Of a stretch of 52,776 nucleotides of DNA, positions 859 through 42,614 are shown piece by piece. Under the pieces are notes generated by a model that worked only from the letters and a program-made list of their open reading frames with translations, was not told where the DNA came from and did no database searches. The stretch spans positions 1 to 52,776 of the forward strand of contig LCOG01000008.1 in the NCBI GenBank assembly GCA_001001705.1, given 5' to 3'. Made by a program: the position numbers and the translations under genes. The number at the start of each line of letters is the position of its first letter. Position 1 is the first letter of the stretch. The stretch comes from Parcubacteria group bacterium GW2011_GWA2_47_26. Lineage in GTDB: Bacteria > Patescibacteriota > Patescibacteriia > GWA2-47-26.

Positions 859-1245
859 TCACATCTCACCAAAAAAATAAATCCACCACTTATAAGAATT
901 AGAAAGATTGTTATTACCCATGGCATCTTCACCATTTCCCCCAACTCCATTTTTGCTTTCAACCACAACTAGATTCTCACCGGGACGCGCAAAGCCAAGA
1001 ACACGGCGCGCCTCACTTTCAAGAAATTCCGGCGTCTCTAAAGTATTAATTAGCGCCTCATAAGATTCGCGTTCCTTTGTTAAATCATCAACTTCAGATT
1101 GCAGGTTAGCAATTTCCCGACGAATAGCTCTATCGCTCCACTGTGCACGCGTTAAATTTACCGATAACAAAATCAGCAAAATAAGACCAACAACAAAAAA
1201 CCAGTGCGAATGATAGAATTTTTTCCAGCTAAATTGTTTGCGCAT
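859..1245 (-). CDS. septum formation initiator, FtsB/DivIC-like
   Basis: N-terminal TM helix, then a coiled coil (REIANLQSEVDDLTKERESYEALINTL), then EFLESEARRVLGFARPGENLVVV, which is typical of the DivIC/FtsB family. Confidence 0.6.
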   Translation of the reverse strand: MRKQFSWKKFYHSHWFFVVGLILLILLSVNLTRAQWSDRAIRREIANLQSEVDDLTKERESYEALINTLETPEFLESEARRVLGFARPGENLVVVESKNGVGGNGEDAMGNNNLSNSYKWWIYFFGEM

Positions 1246-1349
1246 ACCCGGTGCTACAACGCTTTATTAAAACTGTTAATTTGATTCGTAGTCATATGCT
1301 TACTTGTTGCCGGTGCCACTTTAAGCCATACAGTTGTAGCACCGGGCAT
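1246..1349 (-). mobile_element. 104-nt deletion derivative of the GIY-YIG inverted-repeat element (copy A)
   Basis: Minus strand reads ATGCCCGGTGCTACAAC...GTTGTAGCACCGGGT followed by the ATG of the FtsB-like gene. A 32-codon ORF, MPGATTVWLKVAPATSKHMTTNQINSFNKAL, runs from the left-arm ATG to a TAG inside the right arm. Confidence 0.7.
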
Positions 1350-2933: not shown

Positions 2934-4250
2934 CTAGTCCATACTGCCTCCTAGTGCCTTGACCACATCTTTAAGCTTTAATATCTGCGGCGTATTTTCC
3001 GCTCTCTTCTTCAATTCAGCGCTATCGGCGCCGATACTTTTTTCACTGACAATTAACCTTGCTGGTATGCCGATTAAATCCGCATCATTGAGTTTTTCCC
3101 CCGCAGATATATTCTCACAATCGTCATACAATACTTCAACCCCGGCCTTTTGCAAAGCTTCATAGAGTTTTTTTGCGGCATTGCGTACTTGAATATCTTC
3201 TTGCAGGGCAACAAGATGCACCCCGAAAGGCGCGACCGTCTCGGGCCAGATAATTCCGCGCTCATCATGATGAACCTCTACAATGCTTCCCATGGCGCGT
3301 CCAAGCCCAATGCCATAACATCCCATAAGCGCAAGCCGATCCTTGCCGCCTGCATCTTTGACTGCCAAATTAAAAGCTTGCGAGTATTTTGTTTTTAGCT
3401 TGAAAATATTGCCCACTTCAATAGCGCGTTCCGCATGCACTGGTTTTCCGCATTTAGGGCATTTTCCGCCAGCTTCAAGATCGGTAATTTCGCGATTCTG
3501 CGCAAAGTCGCAAAGATTCTTCAGGCTTGTCTTGCGCGCACTCTCCTTGTTAATAGCAACAAAGTCGCGATTATTTTCGCAAACCATGACAATGTCTTCG
3601 CCAGCCGGAGTCAAGACTTGAAATTCATGTGAATATTTTGAAAAAGTCCCGCCCGATGCTTCAACTACAAGCGCCTTAAGGCCTAAACGCTCAAATATTT
3701 TTCGGTACGCAAGACTAACTGTATTGTAAAACTCATCGAGATCGCTTTCCTCAAGATGAAAACTGTATAAATCTTTCATTAAAAATTCGCGGCCGCGCAG
3801 AAGCCCCGACTTTGCCCGCGGTTCATCGCGAAATTTTGCCTGAATCTGGTATAAAGCGATGGGCAAGTCTTTATAGGAGTGTACAAATTTTTTAACTAAC
3901 GGAGTGATAATTTCCTCATGAGTCCAGCCAAGTCCGTACTCCCTATCGCCTCTGCCCGCAAATTGAAACATTACTTCGCGGCCCGGATCTTTCCAGCGCC
4001 CAGTTTTTTCCCAGTTTTCTTTGGGGTGCATGGCCGGAAGCAATAATTCCTGTCCGCCGATTCTATCCATTTCCTCGCGTATCACGCACTCAATTTTCTT
4101 AAGCACCCGTAAGCCCAGCGGCAAAAATGAATACACTCCGGCCATTAATTTATCAACAAAACCGGCGCGCAAAAGCAATTTTGCATTAACGCTCGACTCA
4201 TCAGCCGGAACTTCTCTTACTGTTTTGCTAAAAAGTTTTGACTGCAGCAT
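2934..4250 (-). CDS. proS: prolyl-tRNA synthetase, short form without the INS editing domain
   Basis: Class II aaRS motifs (REEMDRIGGQELLLPAMHP, FRDEPRAKSGLLRGREFLMKD, GCYGIGLGR) and a C-terminal anticodon-binding domain. It carries a Cys-containing insert with CPKCGKPV. Length is 438 aa. Confidence 0.9.
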   Translation of the reverse strand: MLQSKLFSKTVREVPADESSVNAKLLLRAGFVDKLMAGVYSFLPLGLRVLKKIECVIREEMDRIGGQELLLPAMHPKENWEKTGRWKDPGREVMFQFAGRGDREYGLGWTHEEIITPLVKKFVHSYKDLPIALYQIQAKFRDEPRAKSGLLRGREFLMKDLYSFHLEESDLDEFYNTVSLAYRKIFERLGLKALVVEASGGTFSKYSHEFQVLTPAGEDIVMVCENNRDFVAINKESARKTSLKNLCDFAQNREITDLEAGGKCPKCGKPVHAERAIEVGNIFKLKTKYSQAFNLAVKDAGGKDRLALMGCYGIGLGRAMGSIVEVHHDERGIIWPETVAPFGVHLVALQEDIQVRNAAKKLYEALQKAGVEVLYDDCENISAGEKLNDADLIGIPARLIVSEKSIGADSAELKKRAENTPQILKLKDVVKALGGSMD

Positions 4251-11976: not shown

Positions 11977-12968
11977 CGCATATCACCTCCTATCTTATCA
12001 TTGCCCAGCGGATTGTATCCGTTTTCAATCTCGTCGCCGTCAAGATGTTCATCATCGTCGCTATCCGGATTAGCCGGATCAGTCCCATACACCTGCTCTA
12101 TTGTATCAGGAAGATGATCGCCATCAAAATCCGCTGAAAATTGCTGAATAGAAATGCGCGGGGATGTCAAAGATGACGGCATCGCGATTTTCTCCAAAAA
12201 AAGAGCTGCGTTTTCAAGTTTTGGAAAAACCTCTGCAACAGCTAAAAACCCCGATGGGGCATCCATCATCCAAACCGGCTCAAAACTAATCTGTCGGACA
12301 GTAATCTCTGACGCTTTCTCGCTCTTACCCAATTTCGCTTGTATATGCAAGCCTGCCGGCAGCCAAGTTTTAGAATTCAACATTATTTCCCCTTTAAAAT
12401 CTCGCAGTGCGCTGGGTGGCGCCTTAAATTCAAATGAATAATGGGCCTGCTTTTCATTGGACAAACGTCTGTCCAGTACAACATGGCTTACCGCATCAAA
12501 TAAAGCAAAAAGCGTTTGCGCTGTCTCCGGCGGCGCGTCTAATTTTATCCACTGATTATTAATAATTTTAAGCGGTAAAAAAGAAACTCTGATATAGTCG
12601 CCATCCTCCGCAAATCTTAGATCTCCCTTGAAGCGATAGTTATTTTTTTGATCATCTACAAGACCATCAAGATTTACTATCCCCTGCTTTTTCAAAAAAT
12701 CCAGTGACAACTTGGCCTGGCCTTTAAAACTAGGTAATTGTAAATAGGGTAGCTCCAGGGACACATCCGCTTCAAAAGTCACCGCGTTTTTTGTTCGTAA
12801 TGCTTGCACTGTCCTGAATTGCGCTGCCGCCGGCGGAATCCAAATCTGTGCGATTATCAATAAACCAATGCTGATTAATAATGCAACAAAAGCCACGGTT
12901 AATCGCATATCGAGTCGTAAAGAGAAACGTTCTCTAAATAGGCGGCGCTTTGACTTCTTCCCACTCAT
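11973..12968 (-). CDS. membrane-anchored protein with C-terminal thrombospondin type-3-like Ca-binding repeats
   Basis: TM anchor LTVAFVALLISIGLLIIAQIW. C-terminus DFDGDHLPDTIEQVYGTDPANPDSDDDEHLDGDEIENGYNPLG. A more likely start is the internal Met at 12908 (MRLTVAF). Confidence 0.55.
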   Translation of the reverse strand: MSGKKSKRRLFRERFSLRLDMRLTVAFVALLISIGLLIIAQIWIPPAAAQFRTVQALRTKNAVTFEADVSLELPYLQLPSFKGQAKLSLDFLKKQGIVNLDGLVDDQKNNYRFKGDLRFAEDGDYIRVSFLPLKIINNQWIKLDAPPETAQTLFALFDAVSHVVLDRRLSNEKQAHYSFEFKAPPSALRDFKGEIMLNSKTWLPAGLHIQAKLGKSEKASEITVRQISFEPVWMMDAPSGFLAVAEVFPKLENAALFLEKIAMPSSLTSPRISIQQFSADFDGDHLPDTIEQVYGTDPANPDSDDDEHLDGDEIENGYNPLGNDKIGGDMR

Positions 12969-13257
12969 TTAAGCCATCGCTCCATTTATAAGCTTTAAAT
13001 CTATGCGACACCTCATCCGGCGAGTAACTATACTCAATTTTTGAAGCGCTGCCGCCCAATTTTGAATATATGGTTTTTTTATCAAGCACAACCGGTTGAG
13101 TCGTGCGCTCTAATTTCATTTTGCCTTGCGGGCTGTCAAAACTAATAAATTCAACATACGCGTTCGGTATATATTCCAAATCATACCGGCCTTCTTCAAC
13201 CGCCTTGAATTTAGTTTTAACCATTGCTTTTATCTCATTCCACTTGTCGTCGCGCAT
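12934..13257 (-). CDS. hypothetical protein
   Basis: I place the start at the ATG at 13255-13257 (MRDDKWNEIK...), which is the last 3 nt of the right inverted repeat of the GIY-YIG unit. No family motif. Confidence 0.45.
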   Translation of the reverse strand: MRDDKWNEIKAMVKTKFKAVEEGRYDLEYIPNAYVEFISFDSPQGKMKLERTTQPVVLDKKTIYSKLGGSASKIEYSYSPDEVSHRFKAYKWSDGLNEWEEVKAPPI

Positions 13258-13550
13258 ACCCGGTGTCACAACTTCGATTTATAGTATAAGATTAAACGTT
13301 TTGCAAGAAAACGGCGTCCCCGAGTTGTCTTCAGATATTGCTCGCGTCGGCGCGCATCTTCTTCGTTGGTACATACTTCCGCATAAATGAACCGCATAGG
13401 TAGTCGTGATTTTGTGGAGAATACTTCTCCTTTATAATGTTGTAGAAGTCTTTGTTTAAGATTAGTTGTAAATCCTATATACCGATTGCCATCTTTCCTG
13501 CTCTCTAATATATAGACCCAGAAACCTATCGAAGTTGTGGCACCGGACAT
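13258..13550 (-). mobile_element. 293-bp unit: GIY-YIG nuclease ORF bracketed by 17-nt inverted repeats
   Basis: Left arm ATGTCCGGTGCCACAAC (13550-13534) and right arm GTTGTGACACCGGGTAT(G) (13272-13255) are complementary at 15 of 17 positions. The same arms bound the shorter copies at 1246-1349 and 42483-42609. Confidence 0.7.
13266..13550 (-). CDS. small GIY-YIG domain nuclease (94 aa)
   Basis: WVYILES...NRYIGFTTNLKQRLLQH...EEDARRREQYLK gives the GIY, YIG, Arg and Glu motifs. The start is set at the internal ATG (MSGATTSIGF), 4 nt after the pilT stop. The track start at 13601 would overlap pilT by 47 nt. Confidence 0.75.
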   Translation of the reverse strand: MSGATTSIGFWVYILESRKDGNRYIGFTTNLKQRLLQHYKGEVFSTKSRLPMRFIYAEVCTNEEDARRREQYLKTTRGRRFLAKRLILYYKSKL

Positions 13551-13554
13551 ACTC

Positions 13555-14589
13555 CTAAAAATATCTCCCTTTTTCCGATCCGCGATGCTTAGCCACGACA
13601 TCGGAAATAACGCCGTCTTGATAAAGTTTCTTGACTGCCATTTCCATGGTAACCATGCCGTCCCTTACTGAAGTTTGTATTACAGAGGCAATTTGCGCAA
13701 CACGATGCTCGCGAATCAAATTTGCAATAGCGGGATTAACCAACATAATTTCTCGCGCCGCAACAAGTCCACCACGTACAGTGGGTAAAAGCTGCTGCGC
13801 AATTACTGCCCGCAAGGTTGAGGCGAGCTGAATTAATACTTGGCGCTGACGGACCCCTTCAAACATATCAATAATCCGCTCTACCGTATCGGCCGCTGTC
13901 GGCGTGTGCAAAGTTGAAAGCACTAAATGTCCTGTTTCCGCCGCGGTTAATGCGGCCTGTATGGTTTCAAGGTCGCGCATTTCTCCAACCAAAATAACAT
14001 TGGGATCTTGCCGTAAAACATACTTCAAAGCGCTGGCGAACGAAGGCGTATCCTCCCCTACTTCTCTTTGCTCAATCATGCTTTTTGTATTCGTGTAGAG
14101 AAATTCTATCGGATCTTCTATCGTGATAATATGCGCTGACCTCTCCCGATTAATAATTTCAATCATCGCCGCAAGAGTTGTAGACTTTCCACAACCAGAC
14201 GGTCCAGTTACAAGAATTAGGCCGTGATTTAAATGGGTCAACGCATACATCACTTCAGAAAATCCCAAATCTTCCGGAGTGGGTATTTGTTGCGGAATCA
14301 AACGAGCCGCTAGACCAATCTGTCCCCGCTGAAAATGCAGATTGACGCGAAAGCGCCAATTATCATAAGAATATGCAAAATCCAGCTCGCGCTCATGCTC
14401 AAAATCCGCAAACTGTTCTTTAGTCAAAAGTTCAGTCAATAAACCGGCGAGATCGGTTTTTGTTAAAGGTGTATCCTCTACCGCTATAAGTTCGGAGGCA
14501 ATTCGCAAAGTCGGTTTCGTGCCGGCAATCAAGTGCAGATCCGAAGCTTTTTTATCAATGGCTAACTGAAAATATTTGTCAATTTTCAT
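13555..14589 (-). CDS. pilT: type IV pilus retraction ATPase PilT
   Basis: Walker A GPSGCGKSTT, Asp box, Walker B ILVGEMRD and His box TGHLVLSTLHT. The 344-aa length is typical of PilT. Confidence 0.9.
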   Translation of the reverse strand: MKIDKYFQLAIDKKASDLHLIAGTKPTLRIASELIAVEDTPLTKTDLAGLLTELLTKEQFADFEHERELDFAYSYDNWRFRVNLHFQRGQIGLAARLIPQQIPTPEDLGFSEVMYALTHLNHGLILVTGPSGCGKSTTLAAMIEIINRERSAHIITIEDPIEFLYTNTKSMIEQREVGEDTPSFASALKYVLRQDPNVILVGEMRDLETIQAALTAAETGHLVLSTLHTPTAADTVERIIDMFEGVRQRQVLIQLASTLRAVIAQQLLPTVRGGLVAAREIMLVNPAIANLIREHRVAQIASVIQTSVRDGMVTMEMAVKKLYQDGVISDVVAKHRGSEKGRYF

Positions 14590-14625
14590 ACCGTTAGAGG
14601 CAGGTCATCCTTAGACGACCGTACC
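14590..14625 (-). repeat. CTCTAACGG-type hairpin abutting the pilT start codon
   Basis: On the minus strand GGTCGTC-taag-GATGACC then TGCCTCTAACGGT then ATG. It shares GACCTGC(Y)TCTAACGG with the element at 45516-45630. Confidence 0.6.
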
Positions 14626-14720
14626 TAGTTAAATTATTAAATTGTTTATATTTTACACAAGTTATGACGACCACTGAAATAAATTGCCAAAAAAATCTAA
14701 AAATATATCAAAGAAATTTC

Positions 14721-15078
14721 GGGCTATTTCATATAACGGACGGAACGCGCCGCCCGTTGGCCAAAAGGCGAAGTCCGAGCAGAGCGAGGATTTCGCCAGC
14801 GAGCCCCGTACCAAAGCAGAGCTTGGTACGGGGTAGACTCCGCGAGCGATGTTGGCCAACGTTTCGCGATATCCGACGTTCCCGACCGAGACGAGCGGTA
14901 CAATCGCCCTGCCACAAGCGGGGCCACCGCGCAGGCGAGGAAGGGAATGTAGGAGAGGGCACAATTGTCGTTAGTCTAGCGACTTCTTATCTGTTGGGCA
15001 ATTGTTACTGACCAGACACTGCGTCCTCACGAACCGCGCCCGAACCGCATATCCGATGTTGTGCGCCGTAAAAAGCCC
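14721..15078. ncRNA. candidate structured RNA of about 360 nt, class and strand unresolved
   Basis: A GC-rich island inside AT-rich flanks with no credible ORF. The ends can pair (GGGCTATTT with AAAAAGCCC). Internal perfect hairpin CCCCGTACCAA-agcagagc-TTGGTACGGGG. There are RNase P-like strings (GGCGAAGTCCGAGC, GCGGTACAATCGCC, CCACCGCGCAGGCGAGGAAGGG), but I could not build a P4 helix. Confidence 0.3.
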
Positions 15079-24481: not shown

Positions 24482-27400
24482 CTATGATTCAGCCGGGGCC
24501 GGGGGTGACTCAACTGCCGGTTCAGGAGCTGGCTCTGGCGCGGGAGTAGGCGCGGATTCTTGAACTGGCGCGGGAGTAGGTTCTTCTGCTATGGGAGCTG
24601 GAGTGGAGGCCGATTCAGAAGTTGTCGCAGTCTCAATCGGTTCTGGCGCTGGCACTGCGGGAGAACTTTCCACCGGCGCAGAGGCTAGCGCAGGTTCAGG
24701 CGCAGGCGCAGGAGTAGGAGTAGGCTCCGGCGTAGAAACAGGCGCAGAGGCGGGTTCAACTGCTGAAACTGGGGCTTCTTCCGGTTCAACCTCAACTACG
24801 GCGGATGCAGGCTCTTCCGCTACACTTACGTCATCTTGGGGCGTAGCCCGGCCTGCCACAACCGAAGTTGTGGCACCGGGCGTAGCCGAAGGATCCCGCG
24901 ATTCTTGAGTGGCACGGGATTCTTCACGCTGTTCAGAATGACTGTCTTGGGATGTGGAAGATGCCGGAGCAACAGAAACACTGCTTGCGCTAGAGGCCGG
25001 CGCCTCACAAAGCGCTTTTACAAACTCGCCATTGCGAATACTTACACAATACTTCTCGCCCGTTGCCTCATCATACATAATCAACCGCTTCTTTACTTCC
25101 AAATCTTGAAGCATCATATTTCCGCTTGAATCAATGCTCCAAGCACCCGAGGAACTGGCAATGGCCAGCACGCCGGTAAGCGCGCGGCCATTCATATTGC
25201 CGTCAAAAGCGCTCGGTGCCGCAGCAATAGTCCCATCCGACGCTTGCGAGACCGTCAACTGATCCGGACCGTTCCAGAAGGTATTTATTACCTGTACCAT
25301 AACTTGCCCGCGCTCTTCATCAAATTGCGCAAGAGCCATACCAATCACGCGCCCAGAACGCGTAGCTTTCATGGCATGCCCTGGAGTTGAAGAGGTGGTG
25401 AGAAAATCCCCAACTTGGATGGATCCATTCTCGCGCGTCACCTTGACGGGTACGCGCCCGACAAGCGCGACGGGCAGTGGATTATCCTTATCCTCAATAT
25501 TATAGCCCGCAGAAGTGAAGTCACTGTAATTGTCAGAAACAATACCTACCACCGGTTCTTGATATGGTGTACTGGAACGCACCGTCTCTACAATGCGATG
25601 TCCTTGGGTAGTAACGACTTCACGAGTCCCGGGAACCACAATATCTCCGTACGAGACGCCTTGCGCTACAGGAAATTGCTCGGCATAGTCAGCCGTAGGA
25701 GCGCCGTTACAATCCTTAATTGCTTCGGTAGCCGCGCCATTAGTTTCATGACACAACGCATACGGCCCGTTAGCCCCTGTCGCCGTTGCAAAAGTGGCAA
25801 TCACCGTACCCGCCGTTTCCACAATAAACGCGCCCGCATTCACATTAATCGCATCATCCCAGCCGTCGCCGATTATCAATCCCGTCTCCGTCCCAGAACC
25901 GGCAGAAGTCAAAGCCGCAATGTTGACGCCATTAAGCGTGCCGGCGGCTGGACCAGAAGTGGTGGGTGAGACAATGTTTATCCCGGACATGGTACCACCG
26001 GTCACAATGGCGCCGGAGGCGGGAATAAGCACGCGCAGACCATCAGCCGTGACGGTGTCGCCGGTATTTTGGGTAATCACGGGCATGGTCACATTAAGAC
26101 CGCGCCAGGAAAGCACCGCGGCATTGGCGCCGTCAGTAACGCTTAACGCGCCGGCGGCAGAGATATTATATCCAGTGTAAGTGGTGGTGACAGCAGTATC
26201 AGCGGCGGTGAGTGCGTTCATGATGATGTTCGTACCCGTGATATCACGATCAACAGTGCCAGTGAGATTAGTATCAAAATCAAATTGAAGCCCGATTATA
26301 TCGCCAGCACCCTGTGTAGTAGCGCTCGCAAAATCCGCGTTGATGAGCGTGCCGAAAGTCCATTCGGTTTCTAGAGCAAAATCAAGGAAAGTACCGGTGG
26401 CTTGCGGAGTGATTGAAACGTCACCAAGTTCAGTAACCTTGAATACTAAAACCCCCGCGCCCGACAATTCATAATTATTGGCAATTATTTGGAAATCAGC
26501 TGTAGTTGTATCATTATTAGAGTCAATCGCTAATTTAAGATTAGCAGAACTTGCTCCTATAACTCCACCTGCTCCATTTAAGCCCCACTGATCTTGACTT
26601 GATACTTGCAAACCATATGTACTTAAAGTATTTCCACCAACTACAAAGCCGTCGGCTGTTATCTTACTTGATGCCGCGCCATTCACGGCAAAACCTATCT
26701 GGTTGGCCGCTACGGAATAGATGCCTGTGTCAGGGTCGCTTATAAACGCCAAACTAGGCAAAGCCGCGGTACCCGCGCCAAACCCAACATTCCCAGCAAA
26801 ACCAGCCGCCCACGATCTTGTGAGCGTCATGTTTGCCCCTTGCACTGGGTCATCTACATATAACGTATAAGCATCTGATATTGTCAGCGCGCCATCCGCA
26901 TTTCCCGCATAGGTGGGGCCTTGGATGAATACCTCTCTCTGCGTCGCCAGCGGCCCCGCTCCCGCCGCCCAGGTTTTCGTAGCGGAGAAATTAAAGTTTG
27001 CGCCGATATTTTCGGTGGCCGCGGTAAGATTTGTATGAGCCGCGCCTGTTAAAGTTAAGAAGGTTGCCAAGCCAGAAGCTATAGCTCCTTCTGTTAAAAT
27101 AAAATTCCGAGAACTTGCCCCAATTTGTAACGCCGTGCCACCACTGTGAATAATTCTAAATTCATCAGGGGAATTATCTGCAACGATAGACCATGTTCTC
27201 GAACTATTCGTTAATTCAATAGTGAAATCAGAAGCTCCTGTATAGGTTTGAGTGCTTGCCGTGAGAACACTGCGCGCGACATCATTCACACTGAACTCAA
27301 AAGTCGCTCCTGTCGGTACATTGAAATGGAGCTGGTTTGTTGCGTCTGCGTCGCGGCCTATTGAATAAGAAGCCGCTACCATTGCCACGCCGGTATCAAA

Positions 27401-30400
27401 TCTAACATGGTCATTCATCTCTAAAATACCTGTTGCCATGTCAAAAAGAGTCACACCGGCAAAGGCAAGGGTATCTCCCGTCTGGGTAATCGTGGCATCG
27501 CTGCTATCCCAGTTGATGACTGCGCCTTCGGCCAGAAACAAATCGCTGAACGCCGTTCCTGACACGCCAAGCGCGAGGCCGTCATCGGCATTGGGTTGAA
27601 GATTCGTCGCATTGAGAACAAGCTCATTAGTCCCGCCGATGCCCACCTCCAAAGACGTGGTAGCATTGATATCTGTGTCCCACCCAGAACCGACTGAAAT
27701 AGCGGTTTCCGTTCCTGAGCCGGCGGAAGTAAGGTTGGCGATCGCAATGCCTGTAAGAGTGCCCGCGGCAGGCCCTGAAGTTGTTGGCGCAATTATATTA
27801 ATTCCGGTTGATGTTCCGTCGGTTGTAATCGCGGATGAAGCGGGGAACACGATACGAATTGCATCCGCGGTTACCGTGCCCGTGGTTTGAGTGATGGCTG
27901 GAATTGTAATTGTCTCACCTCGCCAATTGATAGTTCCCGCGGCGGTGCTTTGAATTAAACCGGCGCTACTTGTGATTGTAATGCCACTCAATACCTCGGT
28001 GCCGGTTCCAGTGCGCGTAGCGCCATCAGTAGTAAGCGCGATATTGATCATATTCCGACCATTCGCGCCGGTTAAATTAGTGGCCAAATCAATATTTAGG
28101 CCCGTGAGCGCGCCAGCACCCTGCGTATTAGCTGACTCATACGAAACGTCAATAAGCGTGCCTGTGTCATTCATGCTTTCAAAATCCATCATATTTGCCG
28201 TAGTGATACTTGTGCCCGTAATAACAATAGCGGCGCCATCTCCACTGGGAACAAACGACGTCCGTCCATCGCTAAACATTGTAAACACATCCGAGTCTGT
28301 AGCATCCGCGTTTTGACTCGCACGTATGAACCCGGCCGAGGCATCTTCTGAAATCATATGCAGGAAATAGCCATTTGTAGAATTAGTGTCGTTGTATTCA
28401 AGACGAAGCAAAGCTGAATCAAATTGTGACCATGTTCCAGTTTTTTGAATTACCATGGCCGCTTGTCCAGCGGTGTCAAAGGTATTGGCATCACGAATAC
28501 CAATCCCAAAAGCTGATGGTGTGACAGCCTCTGTAAGACCGGCGCCGAACGCTCCGCCGACATGCAAGCCCTCATCCCACCCGGTTCCAATTGAAATAGC
28601 TGTTTCTGTGCCCGATCCAGCGGAGGTCAGGTTTCCGATTTGCATGCCATAAAGCGTGCCGGCCGCCGGACCAGAGGTTGTGGGTGAGACAATGTTTATC
28701 CCGGACATGGTACCACCGGTCACAATGGCGCCGGAGGCGGGAATGGTTACTTTCAGACCATCAGAGGTAATGGTGCCGGCGGTTCCGGTAATGGCAGCCA
28801 GTGTAATGTTGGTTCCAATTGAACTTACTGTACTACCGGCAAAATTTGCAGTTGCCACAGGAGCAGTAATATTCAGACCGCGCCAGTTGATAGTTCCAGC
28901 GGCGGTGTCTTGGGTAAGCGCGCCGGAGGCGGAATTATTGTAGGCAATGTAGGTTGTGGTATTGGCCGCGGATTGAGTGAGCGCGTTCATAACCACATTC
29001 GTGCCAGTGATATCGCGGTCAGTGGCGCCGGTAAGGTTGGTGTCAAAGTCAAACTGCAAACCAATGATGTCTCCGGCTCCTTGGGTGGTTGCGCCCCCAA
29101 AATTGGCGTTTATGAGCGTGCCTAAAGTCCACTCGGTTGCGAGTTCAAAATCAAGAAAGGTTCCCGTAGTATTGGGATCAATCGCAAGTGCACCGGAAGT
29201 TTCGGCAATAAAGGTGCCAGAATTAATGTTGATCGCGTCGTCCCAACCGGAGGCAATAGCTAAGCCTGTGGCCGTAATGGTGCCGGTGGTTTCGGATTGA
29301 GTCAGGGTGCCGATGTTTAAGGCATTTAAGGTAAGGGTGCCGGCCGCGCTAATAGTACCGGTAAAGGCATCCACGTCAATCACATTGAAGGTATCCGAGG
29401 CATTGACTGAAATTGAGGGGGTGATATCAATGACATTGCCCGAGGCATTAGAGCCGGTGAAAGTGAGCTGGAGCGCGTCAACGCCGTCAGTCGCTGAAGT
29501 GTCCCCGGAACCAATAGTCACGATGTCGGCGGTAGGGGTGGCATCCCCGTCAAAGTTAATGGTTTGTCCATCAATGATTTCCACATTAAAGTCACCCCCG
29601 GCAACGGCCAGAGAGTTCGCGGCATGGGTGAGGGTGACATCGCCATTATCAAAGTTGATGACTCCACCCGAGGCCAGGAAAAGATCTGACCACATTAAGG
29701 AGGTGGTGCCTAACGCATTAGAGTCGGTGGTGGCGGGTGAGAAAGCCGAGCTGGTCAGGGTTAGTTCATTGGTACCACCAATGCCGATCTCAAGTGAGGT
29801 GGTGGCATTGATATCCGTATCATATCCTGTACCAATAGAAATACCAGTGGTAGCAGAGTTGGTGGTGGTGGTGTTGGGTAAAGATAACCCAATAAACGTG
29901 TCAGCATCAGTGGATTCTGTCCAGTTGATTACCAAGCCATTGACGGCGTCTACTGCCGCATCGGCCGTAGAGATGGCGGAAAGATCCAGCACATCAATAG
30001 CGTTGACTGAAGTACCGGAAAACGCTACGACATCCCCAGCATTGGCACCAGTTTTAGTCACGTTGGCCGTATCTCCAGCATCGAGCGTCACATTAAAATC
30101 TCCGCCTGAAACATCAAGATCGCCGTTTGAGATAAGGATGTCGCCATCGGTAAGGACTAAAGAATCTACTCCGTCTCCACCGCCGTTTAAGGTGACTTGG
30201 CTGTCCGCGTCTGTATCTATAATCACGTCACCTGTGCCTCCAGGAGTAATAGTCAGAGATTCGTTTGTGCCTGTTGTAATAGAACCGTTGCCAAAGGTTG
30301 TTGTGGCTCCGGCGATGAATGAACCGTCCGTATAGACATTGCCTTCAATGCCTGCAATGCCAGCCACAAAAAGATCGTCTCCATCAAGTGTGAATCCAGC

Positions 30401-32095
30401 ATTGTCAAGAGTTTCTACCGCCGCGCCGACTGTCAGATTGTTGGTAAGGTTCAAGTCTCCGCTGTCTGTGAATGTCGCAAATGCAACGCCTCCATCCTGA
30501 ATGATGAAATCTGTTGTTGTTGAGAGATTGAAAACAAGGTCTCCGGCGGCGTCCACTGTAATGGTTTGACCGTTTGTATAGGCCTCGTCAAGAGTGACGC
30601 CGCCGTCAAGCGAGGTGAATTCGGCTGTTGAAATAAGTGTACCGGCAATGTCAAAAAGATTGGTGAATCCTCCGCCCGCGTCAATCACTTTAATGGCCGC
30701 GCCAATCGCGTCATCTAAATCTGAATTATCAATGACAAGAGAAGCATCAAGGCCTTCGGTTGAAGCAAGGTTATCAATGTAGATGCCATATTGGTCTGTT
30801 GTGCCAGAAGTCGTGTCAGAAGCTGTTGAGTTTATGGTCATCGAGTTTTCTGCCGTGGCGTTGGTAAGGGTTCGAGTTAGAGTAACGGTCTCTCCCGCTG
30901 TTCCAGTAATAGATAAGGCGGCGTCAAGAGAAGAAGCGTCAATAAATTTGTCGAAATCCAGCGTGTCGTCGGCAATATCCGCGTTCTCAATATTGGTAAT
31001 GGAATTCCCCGAACCGTTTGCGTCAAAAGAAACTCCTGTAATCGCGCCTGTTGTTGAGATGTCCCAATCCGATGAATCAATAGCCACTGTGCTCAAGTTG
31101 TTGCCAATAGAAATAGCTGTTGCTCCAGTGAGCGTCAGACCGCCAGCGCCTGTAATCAGGCCGTCGGCTGTGAGCGCTCCGATACCGGTCATGATCCCTG
31201 TGGCATCAATATCCCAATCCGAAGAGTTAACGGCAACCGTGTCGCCCCCATCGCCGAGCAACACCGCGCCTCCGGGTGTGAGAGTAAACGCTCCAGTTGT
31301 GGTGAACGTAGTTGATGTTCCATCAAATGCGATATCTGTATCAGCGATTGCGACATTGCCGTTTGCATCAAGAAGACCGCTTGCTGTCAAAGTTCCTGTT
31401 GCAGTAAGCGCATTGTTCACGGTGCTTGTTCCAGTGGCCGCACCCAGCGATAGCGTGGTAGCCGCTCCGCCGATATTCAAAGCAGTCGCTGTGGTATTTG
31501 CAAGATTAAATGTAGTCGCTGTTGTTGTAAAATCTCCGCCGTTTACCGCAAGATCAGCGCTGGTGGTAATGTTACCCGTAACCGTAATCTCGCCCGAAGC
31601 GCCGAGACGCAAAACATTATTAGCCGAGGTGCCCGCGTGCACACCATCCACAGTGTCGGCATTAATAGCAAATCCTGATGACGCGATTCTCTGCCGCGGC
31701 GCTAACGTTTCTGAAGTTGCAAAAATATCGCTTGTTGAAATTTCAACGCGCAAATATATGCTTGAATCCGAATCAAAATCAAGCGTTAACGCGTCAAACC
31801 CCGCGCTAGTGTCGCCAATAAGCGCGTTAAATACGCCATTCTGCACAGTAAGCCCGACAATCGCCGGATTTCCAGCGGGCCAAAGCTGGGTACCTCCAGT
31901 CAAATCGGAATAGATTGAAAATCGGAAATAAAAGGTCTGGCCGGAAGAACCTCCCAATAAATTACCACTCGCATCAGTAAGCCGTCCTTGATAGCTAATT
32001 ATACTTGGCGGCGCAGCCAAAGAAACCCTGAAAATTCCAAAAGTTAGCATCAGGGCTATTACCGAAAATGCACTTACAAACACAATCCTGCGCAT
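24482..32095 (-). CDS. giant (2537 aa) repetitive surface protein, fibre or adhesin-like
   Basis: N-terminal anchor or signal, then PPSIISYQGRLTD...LWP...VQNGVFN. Three modules of about 200 aa each end in SPTTSGPAAGTL..LTSAGSGTETAISIGTGWD. Tail-fibre-like strings are present (LEIGIGGTNEL...LGTTSLMWSDLFLA). A beta-rich C-terminal domain (ADYAEQF...PVALVGRVPVKV...GDFLTTSSTPGHAMKA) is followed by a P/A/E/S-rich tail. Confidence 0.85.
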   Translation of the reverse strand: MRRIVFVSAFSVIALMLTFGIFRVSLAAPPSIISYQGRLTDASGNLLGGSSGQTFYFRFSIYSDLTGGTQLWPAGNPAIVGLTVQNGVFNALIGDTSAGFDALTLDFDSDSSIYLRVEISTSDIFATSETLAPRQRIASSGFAINADTVDGVHAGTSANNVLRLGASGEITVTGNITTSADLAVNGGDFTTTATTFNLANTTATALNIGGAATTLSLGAATGTSTVNNALTATGTLTASGLLDANGNVAIADTDIAFDGTSTTFTTTGAFTLTPGGAVLLGDGGDTVAVNSSDWDIDATGIMTGIGALTADGLITGAGGLTLTGATAISIGNNLSTVAIDSSDWDISTTGAITGVSFDANGSGNSITNIENADIADDTLDFDKFIDASSLDAALSITGTAGETVTLTRTLTNATAENSMTINSTASDTTSGTTDQYGIYIDNLASTEGLDASLVIDNSDLDDAIGAAIKVIDAGGGFTNLFDIAGTLISTAEFTSLDGGVTLDEAYTNGQTITVDAAGDLVFNLSTTTDFIIQDGGVAFATFTDSGDLNLTNNLTVGAAVETLDNAGFTLDGDDLFVAGIAGIEGNVYTDGSFIAGATTTFGNGSITTGTNESLTITPGGTGDVIIDTDADSQVTLNGGGDGVDSLVLTDGDILISNGDLDVSGGDFNVTLDAGDTANVTKTGANAGDVVAFSGTSVNAIDVLDLSAISTADAAVDAVNGLVINWTESTDADTFIGLSLPNTTTTNSATTGISIGTGYDTDINATTSLEIGIGGTNELTLTSSAFSPATTDSNALGTTSLMWSDLFLASGGVINFDNGDVTLTHAANSLAVAGGDFNVEIIDGQTINFDGDATPTADIVTIGSGDTSATDGVDALQLTFTGSNASGNVIDITPSISVNASDTFNVIDVDAFTGTISAAGTLTLNALNIGTLTQSETTGTITATGLAIASGWDDAININSGTFIAETSGALAIDPNTTGTFLDFELATEWTLGTLINANFGGATTQGAGDIIGLQFDFDTNLTGATDRDITGTNVVMNALTQSAANTTTYIAYNNSASGALTQDTAAGTINWRGLNITAPVATANFAGSTVSSIGTNITLAAITGTAGTITSDGLKVTIPASGAIVTGGTMSGINIVSPTTSGPAAGTLYGMQIGNLTSAGSGTETAISIGTGWDEGLHVGGAFGAGLTEAVTPSAFGIGIRDANTFDTAGQAAMVIQKTGTWSQFDSALLRLEYNDTNSTNGYFLHMISEDASAGFIRASQNADATDSDVFTMFSDGRTSFVPSGDGAAIVITGTSITTANMMDFESMNDTGTLIDVSYESANTQGAGALTGLNIDLATNLTGANGRNMINIALTTDGATRTGTGTEVLSGITITSSAGLIQSTAAGTINWRGETITIPAITQTTGTVTADAIRIVFPASSAITTDGTSTGINIIAPTTSGPAAGTLTGIAIANLTSAGSGTETAISVGSGWDTDINATTSLEVGIGGTNELVLNATNLQPNADDGLALGVSGTAFSDLFLAEGAVINWDSSDATITQTGDTLAFAGVTLFDMATGILEMNDHVRFDTGVAMVAASYSIGRDADATNQLHFNVPTGATFEFSVNDVARSVLTASTQTYTGASDFTIELTNSSRTWSIVADNSPDEFRIIHSGGTALQIGASSRNFILTEGAIASGLATFLTLTGAAHTNLTAATENIGANFNFSATKTWAAGAGPLATQREVFIQGPTYAGNADGALTISDAYTLYVDDPVQGANMTLTRSWAAGFAGNVGFGAGTAALPSLAFISDPDTGIYSVAANQIGFAVNGAASSKITADGFVVGGNTLSTYGLQVSSQDQWGLNGAGGVIGASSANLKLAIDSNNDTTTADFQIIANNYELSGAGVLVFKVTELGDVSITPQATGTFLDFALETEWTFGTLINADFASATTQGAGDIIGLQFDFDTNLTGTVDRDITGTNIIMNALTAADTAVTTTYTGYNISAAGALSVTDGANAAVLSWRGLNVTMPVITQNTGDTVTADGLRVLIPASGAIVTGGTMSGINIVSPTTSGPAAGTLNGVNIAALTSAGSGTETGLIIGDGWDDAINVNAGAFIVETAGTVIATFATATGANGPYALCHETNGAATEAIKDCNGAPTADYAEQFPVAQGVSYGDIVVPGTREVVTTQGHRIVETVRSSTPYQEPVVGIVSDNYSDFTSAGYNIEDKDNPLPVALVGRVPVKVTRENGSIQVGDFLTTSSTPGHAMKATRSGRVIGMALAQFDEERGQVMVQVINTFWNGPDQLTVSQASDGTIAAAPSAFDGNMNGRALTGVLAIASSSGAWSIDSSGNMMLQDLEVKKRLIMYDEATGEKYCVSIRNGEFVKALCEAPASSASSVSVAPASSTSQDSHSEQREESRATQESRDPSATPGATTSVVAGRATPQDDVSVAEEPASAVVEVEPEEAPVSAVEPASAPVSTPEPTPTPAPAPEPALASAPVESSPAVPAPEPIETATTSESASTPAPIAEEPTPAPVQESAPTPAPEPAPEPAVESPPAPAES
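24830..24942 (-). repeat. composite palindromic element translated in frame near the 3' end of the giant gene
   Basis: On the minus strand GTCATTCTGAACAGCGTGAAGAATCCC...CCCAAGATGAC, with an inner hairpin CCCGGTGCCACAAC-TTCG-GTTGTGGCAGGCCGGG (24847-24880). It encodes HSEQREESRATQESRDPSATPGATTSVVAGRATPQDD. Confidence 0.7.
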
Positions 32096-42063: not shown

Positions 42064-42482
42064 CTGTCATTCTGATCCGCCGTTGAGGCGGAACGGTTTA
42101 ATTTCTGACGCAATTCTTCCAACTGGCGCGGATCAACCTCTTCCAGAACATCAACAAATTGCGCTATTGCCACTGATCCAAAATTGCGAAGGATTTCCCC
42201 GAAAAGCACCCTGCTCGTTTTGGCATAAAACGCATCGCGATCATAAGCAGGCTTATAAATAAAACTCCCGTTTGGCAACTCCTCCCTAGATAAATATCCC
42301 TTTTCTGTCATGCGCGTCATCACGGTCATAACCGTTGTGTAAGCCAGATCCCGCCGCCGCCCGACTATCTGCAATATATCGCGCACAGTGCCCGCGCGCC
42401 TTTGCCAAAGCGCCTCTAAAATCGCTTTTTCAAGCATGCCTAAAAGTTGTCCCTTTTTCTTGGTATTCCTAATCAAGGCCAT
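42045..42482 (-). CDS. BlaI/MecI/CopY-family winged-helix repressor
   Basis: LEKAILEALWQRRAGTVRDILQIV...AYTTVMTVMTRMTEKGYLSRE. The last 16 codons come from two repeat termini. Confidence 0.8.
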   Translation of the reverse strand: MALIRNTKKKGQLLGMLEKAILEALWQRRAGTVRDILQIVGRRRDLAYTTVMTVMTRMTEKGYLSREELPNGSFIYKPAYDRDAFYAKTSRVLFGEILRNFGSVAIAQFVDVLEEVDPRQLEELRQKLNRSASTADQNDSRPVAL

Positions 42483-42609
42483 ACCCGGTGCTACAACACT
42501 TTATGCCAATATTGTTGCGTTAAATTCTTGAATCAAACTTATATTTATTGCCTTGCATTTCTACTTGTGCCGACGCCACTTTAATACCGACAGTTGTAGC
42601 ACCGGGCAT
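42483..42609 (-). mobile_element. 127-nt deletion derivative of the GIY-YIG inverted-repeat element (copy B)
   Basis: On the minus strand ATGCCCGGTGCTACAAC...GTTGTAGCACCGGGT followed by the ATG of the repressor gene. The mini-ORF reads MPGATTVGIKVASAQVEMQGNKYKFDSRI. Confidence 0.7.
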
Positions 42610-42614
42610 ACTAT

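Follow-up and report, generated by a model that had tools for sequence, protein, structure and literature searches.

Very small mobile elements of Patescibacteria encode a GIY-YIG nuclease between terminal inverted repeats and lie on start codons

Ssn proteins are 94-amino-acid (aa), single-domain GIY-YIG nucleases (cd10448) that cut only single-stranded DNA (ssDNA), and do so beside a hairpin repeat (Chenal et al., 2025; PMC11893778). Their genes are flanked on both sides by repeats in 42% of homologues, the repeats occur in hundreds of genomic copies, and cleavage persists when the hairpin halves are supplied on two separate oligonucleotides (PMC11893778). The authors of that study remarked on the insertion sequence (IS)-like layout and proposed domestication (PMC11893778). 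GIY-YIG open reading frames (ORFs) have also been reported in rRNA gene insertions of the candidate phyla radiation (CPR) that belong to neither intron group (I or II) and do not resemble homing (PMC11270868). Here, we describe a 94-aa GIY-YIG nuclease ORF that lies between inverted repeats downstream of pilT in contig LCOG01000008.1 of Parcubacteria group bacterium GW2011_GWA2_47_26 (coordinates 1-52,776; this whole stretch is hereafter the window). The feature is confirmed as a real and widespread family of mobile elements, wider than the window suggests. Full-text literature searches turned up no account of GIY-YIG elements that are bounded by terminal inverted repeats and lie on start codons; Ssn came closest (PMC11893778). 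An initial annotation of the window had presented the organization as undescribed, which goes too far, since Ssn genes between hairpin repeats are known (PMC11893778); what appears to be new is the placement of half-repeats on the ends of the ORF, the duplication of the start codon, the coupling layout, and the direct evidence of insertion.

The long unit in the window (13259-13547) is 289 bp and consists of a single 94-aa GIY-YIG ORF that runs from repeat to repeat (13266..13550, including its stop codon) between 20-nt terminal inverted repeats. The unit, the nuclease ORF, and pilT all have minus-strand orientation. The pilT homologue (13555..14589), which has a T2SSE domain by Pfam, ends in TAG (13557..13555) and is followed by GAGT, an ATG (13550..13548), and then TCCGGTGCCACAAC. 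This ATG, 4 nt past the pilT stop, is the start of the nuclease and forms part of the left copy of a duplicated TATG (13548..13551). The opening of the ORF reads ATG TCC GGT GCC ACA AC, and the left repeat, TCCGGTGCCACAACTTCGAT (13528..13547), codes for nuclease residues 2-8 (SGATTSI). At the opposite end, the ORF closes with AAG TTG TGA within GTTGTGACACCGGG, and its stop codon (13268..13266) is held in the right repeat, ATCGAAGTTGTGACACCGGG (13259..13278), 8 nt upstream of the host ATG. That ATG (13257..13255), in the right copy of the TATG (13255..13258), directly follows the right repeat and opens the next ORF, the host gene 12934..13257 (107 aa). The initial annotation had likewise placed both ends of the ORF inside the repeat arms, taken the ATG at the end of the right arm for the start of the next gene, and fitted the unit between a stop and a start codon, all of which was borne out. 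Its count of 15 complementary positions in arms of 17 nt holds if G·T pairs are allowed, while strict Watson-Crick pairing gives 14/17; the true repeat, reading from CCCGG inward, is 20 nt long with 18/20 positions matched and inner ends of TTCGAT/ATCGAA. The arm pattern occurred eight times in the window against 1.1 expected, a count reached in 0 of 100 shuffles, and seven of the eight matches fell in the long unit and the three shorter units listed in the initial annotation. The remaining match (30300-30312), which has one mismatch and lies inside a giant ORF with no partner arm, was taken as chance.

A profile search upheld the assignment of the ORF to the GIY-YIG nucleases (PF01541, E=5.5e-16; 59.1 bits against a cut-off of 22.6 bits for the domain). 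Residues Y13, Y24, R34, H38, and E70 were invariant in 21 homologues, as was a basic C-terminal helix (GRRFLAKRL), and an AlphaFold2 model (pLDDT 87.6) predicted a confident GIY-YIG fold except at residues 1-5, which are encoded by the arm and disordered. Hence the catalytic profile of the superfamily is present together with its catalytic residues and three-strand/helix fold. The nearest solved structures were those of the UPF0213 proteins BH0048 (1zg2, E=5.2e-10) and EF2693 (1ywl) and of the nuclease domain of SLX1, with UvrC-N and I-TevI next in rank. Both arm-encoded termini are conserved among homologues, the N-terminus reading MPGATTS, MPGVTTS, MPSNTTSS, or MPGRRIS and the C-terminus ..YYQSKL before the stop. 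Since residues 1-5 are disordered yet conserved, a constraint at the level of DNA is suggested. Outside the arms, the median dN/dS of the homologues was 0.16, indicating purifying selection on the protein. The homologues are 94-106 aa in length and match the GIY-YIG domain alone, in keeping with the single-domain architecture of Ssn (cd10448), and a profile of the family scored the Ssn of Azospirillum that is flanked by SRM repeats (41.5 bits) and UPF0213 BH0048 (42.6 bits) as equidistant.

The protein collection held 73 homologues of the nuclease at 48-78% identity, the few named ones being from Patescibacteria, and a metagenome scan for relatives gave at least 562 loci, out of 600 listed candidates, confirmed as encoding one. 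Phage carriage was considered and rejected, since no relatives were found in IMG/VR viral contigs and just three weak matches in plasmids. From the best 80 metagenome loci and other fetched loci, we assembled 55 unique full-length and 21 short elements. Thus, the possibility raised with the initial annotation that no further paired copies exist was answered by many more of them. The full-length elements (286-385 bp) have one ORF for a 94-106-aa, single-domain GIY-YIG protein and 20-nt terminal inverted repeats, CCCNGTNNTACAACTTCGA... / ...TCGAAGTTGTANNACNGGG. The layout (T)ATG-20-nt repeat-ORF-20-nt repeat-(T)ATG is common to about 50 of the 55, as seen, e.g., between PrgI-like and TraC-like genes in an NCBI metagenome-assembled genome (MAG; L001), where the sequence reads TAA-T-TATG-CCCGGTGCGACAAC...GTTGTAGCACCGGG-TATG. 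All long elements are in sense orientation, and the ATG past the right repeat opens ORFs of 81-1097 codons. When ten of these downstream ORFs were scanned against Pfam, nine matched (an epimerase, an MFS transporter, DnaB, a HEAT-repeat protein, a glycosyltransferase, a ComM-like Mg-chelatase, an ABC ATPase, a type IV coupling protein, and PolX), and because the domains begin at residues 1-30, the ATGs in question are true gene starts.

The sequences flanking the elements point to insertion. NATG with the same N on both sides was found around 37 long and 13 short elements (T/T in 47, G/G in two, and C/C in one), two pairs were discordant, and eight further elements had NATG on the left and ATG alone on the right. 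Copies that lie off an ATG are flanked by other direct repeats (CCCG, CTTG, CAAGAG, and CTACG), which argues that the flanking repeat is a target-site duplication and not part of the element. The full-length elements L032 and L043 (3932-4316) and L087 (763-1080) also lie off an ATG and have an internal leader and a start codon of their own; in L032 and L043, a second ORF begins at an AATGA stop/start overlap and continues through the right repeat into a ThiD-like gene, which thereby has an element-derived N-terminus. In all, ~90% of elements sit on a start codon. TATG serves as a start codon at 29 of its 397 occurrences in the window (7%), or at 29 of 90 (32%) when only non-coding occurrences are counted; therefore, the association with start codons exceeds what mere avoidance of coding sequence would give.

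Orthologous sites without an insertion were found for two of the units in the window. In Candidatus Uhrbacteria (L106-L110), the junction reads pilT-TAA-T-ATG followed by an orthologue of the 107-aa gene (57% identity), with a single TATG and no arms. Similarly, an Uhrbacteria locus syntenic to the short unit at 1247-1346 (L127) reads bPH_2-TAA-GA-TATG-DivIC and has no arms, where the window reads TAA-CGAGA-TATG-unit-TATG. Had the arms been ordinary structure of an untranslated region, a doubt voiced with the initial annotation, they would be expected at the same loci in relatives, and these empty sites rule that explanation out. The family therefore has the inverted repeats at fixed ends, the target-site duplication, and the empty orthologous sites of a terminal-inverted-repeat transposable element, while no recognized transposase (DDE, DEDD, HUH, Ser, or Tyr) is encoded, the sole ORF being the GIY-YIG nuclease. 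Considering that target-site duplications flank the elements, that one architecture recurs at dozens of unrelated loci, that the repeats co-vary (described below), and that orthologous sites are empty, mobile-element status is well supported by sequence comparison.

Across the 55 long elements, arm pairing was 84-100% at positions 1-7 and 11-20 and ~30% from position 21 on. Co-variation of the arms had been noticed in the window units, and in the larger set it extends to several pair types per position: positions 4, 7, 8, 11, 14, 18, and 20 each have two to four types of Watson-Crick pair (e.g., A-T 32, G-C 9, and C-G 7 at position 4; C-G 27 and G-C 22 at position 18). Two sister short units in one contig (L061) show a compensated change, CCCCGAC/GTCGGGG in one and CCTCGAC/GTCGAGG in the other. 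Positions 8-10 are mismatched in one subfamily, whose right arm must carry TGA. Indeed, because the arms are coding, nuclease residue 4 is tied to the stop codon, with GCT (Ala) accompanied by TAG, GTT (Val) by TAA, and GTC (Val) by TGA. In predicted single-strand structures, the arms close the short units, the mini-unit described below, and whole elements.

The three shorter units of the window, which the initial annotation had correctly credited with the same arms, differ in size and content. The 100-bp unit (1247..1346, minus strand) has perfect arms, CCCGGTGCTACAAC / GTTGTAGCACCGGG, and TATG flanks at 1347-1350 and 1243-1246 (CATA on the plus strand); an ORF of 31 codons opens at the left ATG (1349..1347) and closes with a TAG that lies in the right arm, 8 nt short of the start codon of a DivIC-like gene (859..1245). 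A 123-bp unit (42484..42606, minus strand) has the same perfect arms and TATG flanks at 42607-42610 and 42480-42483, and stands at the start codon (42482..42480) of a gene for a BlaI/Penicillinase_R-type repressor; its internal ORF ends early, 37 nt before the host ATG. These two units are homologous to each other, and in both the left arm is preceded by ATG. The third is a 34-bp mini-unit (24847..24880, minus strand) made of two arms set back to back with a TTCG loop, and its 5-nt direct repeats are CTACG (24842-24846 and 24881-24885), so that all four units of the window are bounded by direct repeats, TATG in the long and both short units and CTACG in the mini-unit. Its insertion added 39 bases, i.e., 13 codons (TPGATTSVVAGRA), and preserved the reading frame of a 2537-aa ORF. 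This ORF (24482-32095, minus strand), which holds the mini-unit in frame near its 3' end, has no Pfam match. Another element (L045) has a similar mini-hairpin nested within its N-terminal region.

Elsewhere, some short units retain TTCGA...TCGAA and are plain internal deletions (L015:2001 and L016), while others have unrelated cores common to several loci or genomes (the window units, L011, L012, and L015:1501). Since such cores are shared between loci and genomes, those short units have evidently spread as non-autonomous copies, and the shorter units with the same ends are, as a whole, best read as deletion derivatives or non-autonomous copies. The initial reading of the window as an autonomous element with its derivatives therefore stands as far as a mobile element with shorter derivatives is concerned; autonomy, i.e., the GIY-YIG protein as the mover, we infer. 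Element boundaries also appear to be reused as targets, as in the head-to-tail chain of L065 (1-660), which consists of a partial unit, TATG, a 309-bp nuclease element, TATG, a 141-bp unit, TATG, a second 141-bp unit, TATG, and a host gene.

Several further loci with arm-like or neighboring sequences were recorded. A MAG labeled Oscillospiraceae has a 112-bp unit (L014:1330-1441) with the same arms, CCGGTGCCACAAC / GTTGTGGCACCGG, and three internal perfect hairpins, which ends in ..CCGGATATG at what appears to be the start of a gene; the contig may be mis-binned, or else the family extends beyond Patescibacteria. In L074 (3650-3762), a tRNA-Arg(GCG) gene (3673-3746) lies between inverted repeats that begin like element arms (CCCAGTACTAAAAATTTT / AAAATTTTAGTACGGGG); a unit with arms around a tRNA gene is one possible reading, chance another. 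In one relative (locus of P0093), the bPH_2-DivIC junction at which the window has its 100-bp unit contains 294 nt without a called gene, which matches a full-length element in size. Finally, the ~490 nt upstream of pilT in the window (14590-15077) hold just overlapping short ORFs on both strands, without an Rfam match.

The position of the elements on start codons has consequences for translation. The initial annotation had pointed to three translational signals embedded in the arms of the window unit, and these recur family-wide: of 47 elements, 35 have the nuclease stop 7-10 nt ahead of the host ATG, 10 have it 16-56 nt ahead, and two are pseudogenes. By a loose criterion, a Shine-Dalgarno sequence was recognizable in 12 of 48 genes of the window, and T was found at position -1 in 33 of 48, so that TATG is the usual start context of this genome. 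Nearly all window genes are on the minus strand. Since the left ATG becomes the start of the nuclease, the element can do without its own promoter or initiation region. An insertion leaves a GC-rich arm in front of the host ATG, and the presence of elements upstream of dnaB indicates that downstream translation survives. We suggest that a host gene placed behind such a GC-rich repeat, without a Shine-Dalgarno sequence, would be translated by termination-reinitiation, and this coupling would make insertions tolerable even upstream of essential genes.

A possible route of movement can be drawn by analogy with Ssn and its hairpin repeats. The nuclease would recognize the stem formed by both repeats in ssDNA and cut beside it, and host repair or ligation might then finish the excision, or the copying of the element into new (T)ATG sites. 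Taken together, we consider it probable that the family represents a selfish and very compact transposable element of Patescibacteria (about 285-340 bp), with reinitiation at the host gene and a nuclease acting on an ssDNA stem. A stricter version, in which movement requires no element-encoded factor besides the GIY-YIG protein, the stem formed by the ends in ssDNA is acted upon, start codons are selected, and built-in coupling keeps the element harmless, is put forward tentatively and we would not yet favor it.

Several observations weigh against these proposals. To our knowledge, GIY-YIG enzymes hydrolyze DNA and strand transfer by them is not known, so the joining step must come from something else. 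The direct repeats vary in length from 3 to 6 nt, a spread that would be unusual if cleavage had one defined geometry. Movement driven by the nuclease is, moreover, an inference from sequence. Both empty sites come from distant relatives (~57% protein identity), and no insertion polymorphism was seen within populations: contigs of the window species all carry the three units, and the P0067 element occupies a single locus in all contigs read, and L132 and L133 are 99.9% identical without indels. Without presence/absence polymorphism, movement cannot be frequent, and recent movement has not been caught. Apparent differences downstream of the BlaI gene were examined as candidate polymorphisms and turned out to be assembly gaps. 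The long elements were sampled through a protein search and are hence biased to intact, expressed copies. Premature stops in 8 of 13 short units mean that the coupling layout is lost in most of them, and that coupling is dispensable for survival of the host gene. Lastly, mismatches in the arms showed no sense-strand excess of G·T (G·U) type (17, against 19 of A·C type), i.e., no strand-specific wobble; this gives no support for an RNA-level role of the stem and does not point to a function in RNA alone, and it leaves a DNA hairpin and symmetric recognition by a protein inseparable.

The observation that nuclease-free short units exist and have spread between loci and genomes would also be expected if the ends were of the MITE type (miniature transposable elements with inverted repeats) and owed their movement to an unlinked transposase acting in trans (DDE, HUH, or other), with the GIY-YIG gene as a passenger that profits from the transport without catalyzing it. 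DDE transposases typically produce target-site duplications of 4-6 nt, the want of a known strand-transfer activity in GIY-YIG enzymes points the same way, and a related genome (L128) does have a Y1 transposase gene. That gene, however, lies between its own unrelated hairpins, and as a RAYT/Y1-type mobilizer it was rejected, since its hairpins near the related DivIC locus are different (TACAGAGGCTCAACCTCTGTAG) and no family arms are nearby. A passenger gene would also hardly be kept under strong purifying selection and be found, in ~50 diverged elements, exactly from repeat to repeat with nothing else enclosed. No larger element with these ends was seen, and long copies seem commoner than short ones: loci bearing the protein number at least 562, while the species-representative genomes gave 14 short units with paired arms, in a search that is not equivalent to the first. 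Mobilization in trans is therefore judged unlikely. The neighborhood of pilT, together with the competence and type IV pilus genes that Patescibacteria carry, raises instead the prospect of a domesticated, host-serving system, in which cutting of ssDNA at the repeats would modulate transformation or recombination, as proposed for Neisseria SsnA/NTS, and the repeats would be regulatory or restriction marks. Ssn offers a precedent with the same protein size and the same placement of the gene between repeats, and the units are kept in all population contigs. A domesticated single-copy gene would nevertheless not be expected to recur at numerous unrelated loci, with a target-site duplication around every copy and clean empty sites in relatives, nor to occur in tandem chains (L065) and pseudogenized copies. 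We regard domestication as improbable for this family, noting that it and mobility are not mutually exclusive.

The fold itself is the classical one of homing endonucleases (I-TevI and the Seg proteins), I-TevI was among the fold matches, the elements lie precisely between genes, and some positions are conserved across diverged genomes (L035/L037/L042), all of which might suggest a free-standing homing endonuclease gene that spreads at one locus by repair of double-strand breaks. Homing, however, creates neither terminal inverted repeats nor target-site duplications and yields no non-coding derivatives; the same ends, with the duplication, recur upstream of at least 10 unrelated gene families and not at a single locus, and the nuclease has no separate DNA-binding domain. 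This explanation thus seems very improbable. A predicted strong arm stem that sequesters both AUGs could be read as ordinary leader or intergenic RNA structure (attenuators, terminators, or RNase III sites), and the inner ends, ...ACAAC/GTTGT..., are loosely like the core sites of integron attC cassette boundaries. Against RNA structure, orthologous junctions in relatives have no arms, arms occur at unrelated genes and inside an ORF, and an Rfam search at gathering thresholds matched none of the units and, in the whole window, only three tRNAs. The attC analogy was ruled out on motif and arrangement, since the arms misfit RYYYAAC/GTTRRRY, the units are dispersed and not arrayed, and no integrase was noticed near them. 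We give these last two ideas hardly any credence.

If nuclease-driven transposition is correct, the family would constitute the first class of prokaryotic transposons to depend on a GIY-YIG nuclease for movement, would be at ~290 bp the smallest autonomous mobile element known, and would provide a still-mobile counterpart of the Ssn/NTS systems. Small modules of a GIY-YIG gene and hairpin repeats would then include elements that truly insert, backing the idea that Ssn/NTS are domesticated transposons. The genetic economy is extreme, with essentially one ORF whose first and last codons double as terminal repeats, and with an element that borrows a host translation start and would return the ribosome to the host gene, even before the essential dnaB. 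For annotation of Patescibacteria, hundreds of genes listed as 'GIY-YIG family protein', as well as odd N-terminal extensions, are likely to be copies of such elements, and the CPR rRNA gene insertions bearing GIY-YIG ORFs (PMC11270868) may be members of the family. Hairpin-specific nucleases with co-evolving recognition sequences could conceivably serve as ssDNA tools.

Among known systems, the best relatives of the nuclease by solved structure are UPF0213/YhbQ and SLX1. UPF0213 proteins, however, are single-copy and of housekeeping type with no flanking repeats reported, and SLX1 requires SLX4 and has a RING domain. Correia elements and Rickettsia palindromic elements resemble the family in being short, in having terminal inverted repeats, target duplication, and hairpins, and in that some lie in frame within ORFs, like the 34-bp mini-unit; in contrast to it, they are derived from or dependent on DDE transposases or have no known mobilizer, and they have neither a full-length form with only a GIY-YIG gene nor a tie to start codons. 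Elements of the IS200/IS605 type are likewise very small, are recognized at ssDNA hairpin ends, and insert beside a specific tetra- or pentanucleotide, a role that TATG could play here. They differ in their Y1 HUH transposase with its covalent intermediate, in having subterminal hairpins and not terminal inverted repeats, in the lack of target duplication, and in size (~700 bp or more, compared to ~290 bp). REPIN/RAYT systems share with the family a small nuclease gene between inverted short repeats, dispersed repeat doublets of ~100 nt, and conserved repeat pairing. RAYTs, however, have the HUH-Y1 fold (PF01797), which the GIY-YIG protein does not, and are single-copy and vertically inherited, and REPINs follow genes, without target duplication or overlap of ORF and repeat. 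In the Uhrbacteria genome mentioned above (L128:7900-8720), a 240-aa RAYT-like Y1_Tnp gene has the same hairpin, TTTACAGAGGCTCAACCTCTGTAG, on both sides, and the downstream hairpin adjoins the next gene's start codon (..GTAGGGTATG); this hairpin/nuclease module is a second one and unrelated to the first.

The closest likeness is to Ssn/NTS, with which the family shares a single-domain GIY-YIG protein of ~94 aa, a gene between hairpin-forming repeats that are also found elsewhere in the genome, and co-evolution of protein and repeat. The SRM motif (HGTCWY N0-2 YYVSBRH N0-5 WNVSBRG N0-2 RNCYNB) had no match in the 52.8-kb window, while a positive control from Azospirillum lipoferum 4B plasmid AZO_p3 (L130) gave four, flanking its gene. 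The control locus (L130:1379-1890) has a 97-aa GIY-YIG gene between sufB and sufC, flanked by two inverted doublets of CGTCATCCCCGCGAAGGCGGGGATCCAG (four NTS-like repeats), and is a canonical Ssn/NTS module in a conserved operon. In Ssn loci each flank is a complete hairpin, whereas in the element each flank is half of one long-range inverted repeat, and this repeat overlaps the start and stop codons of the ORF. The two also differ in the C-terminal region of the protein (KTTRGRRFLAKRL in the element, KKWNRDWKIRLIEE in Ssn), and the element belongs to hosts of the phylum Patescibacteria and lies on a start codon with a duplicated (T)ATG. Whereas mobility of Ssn has not been demonstrated, the gene-bearing element is present at multiple loci, and its sites are empty in relatives.

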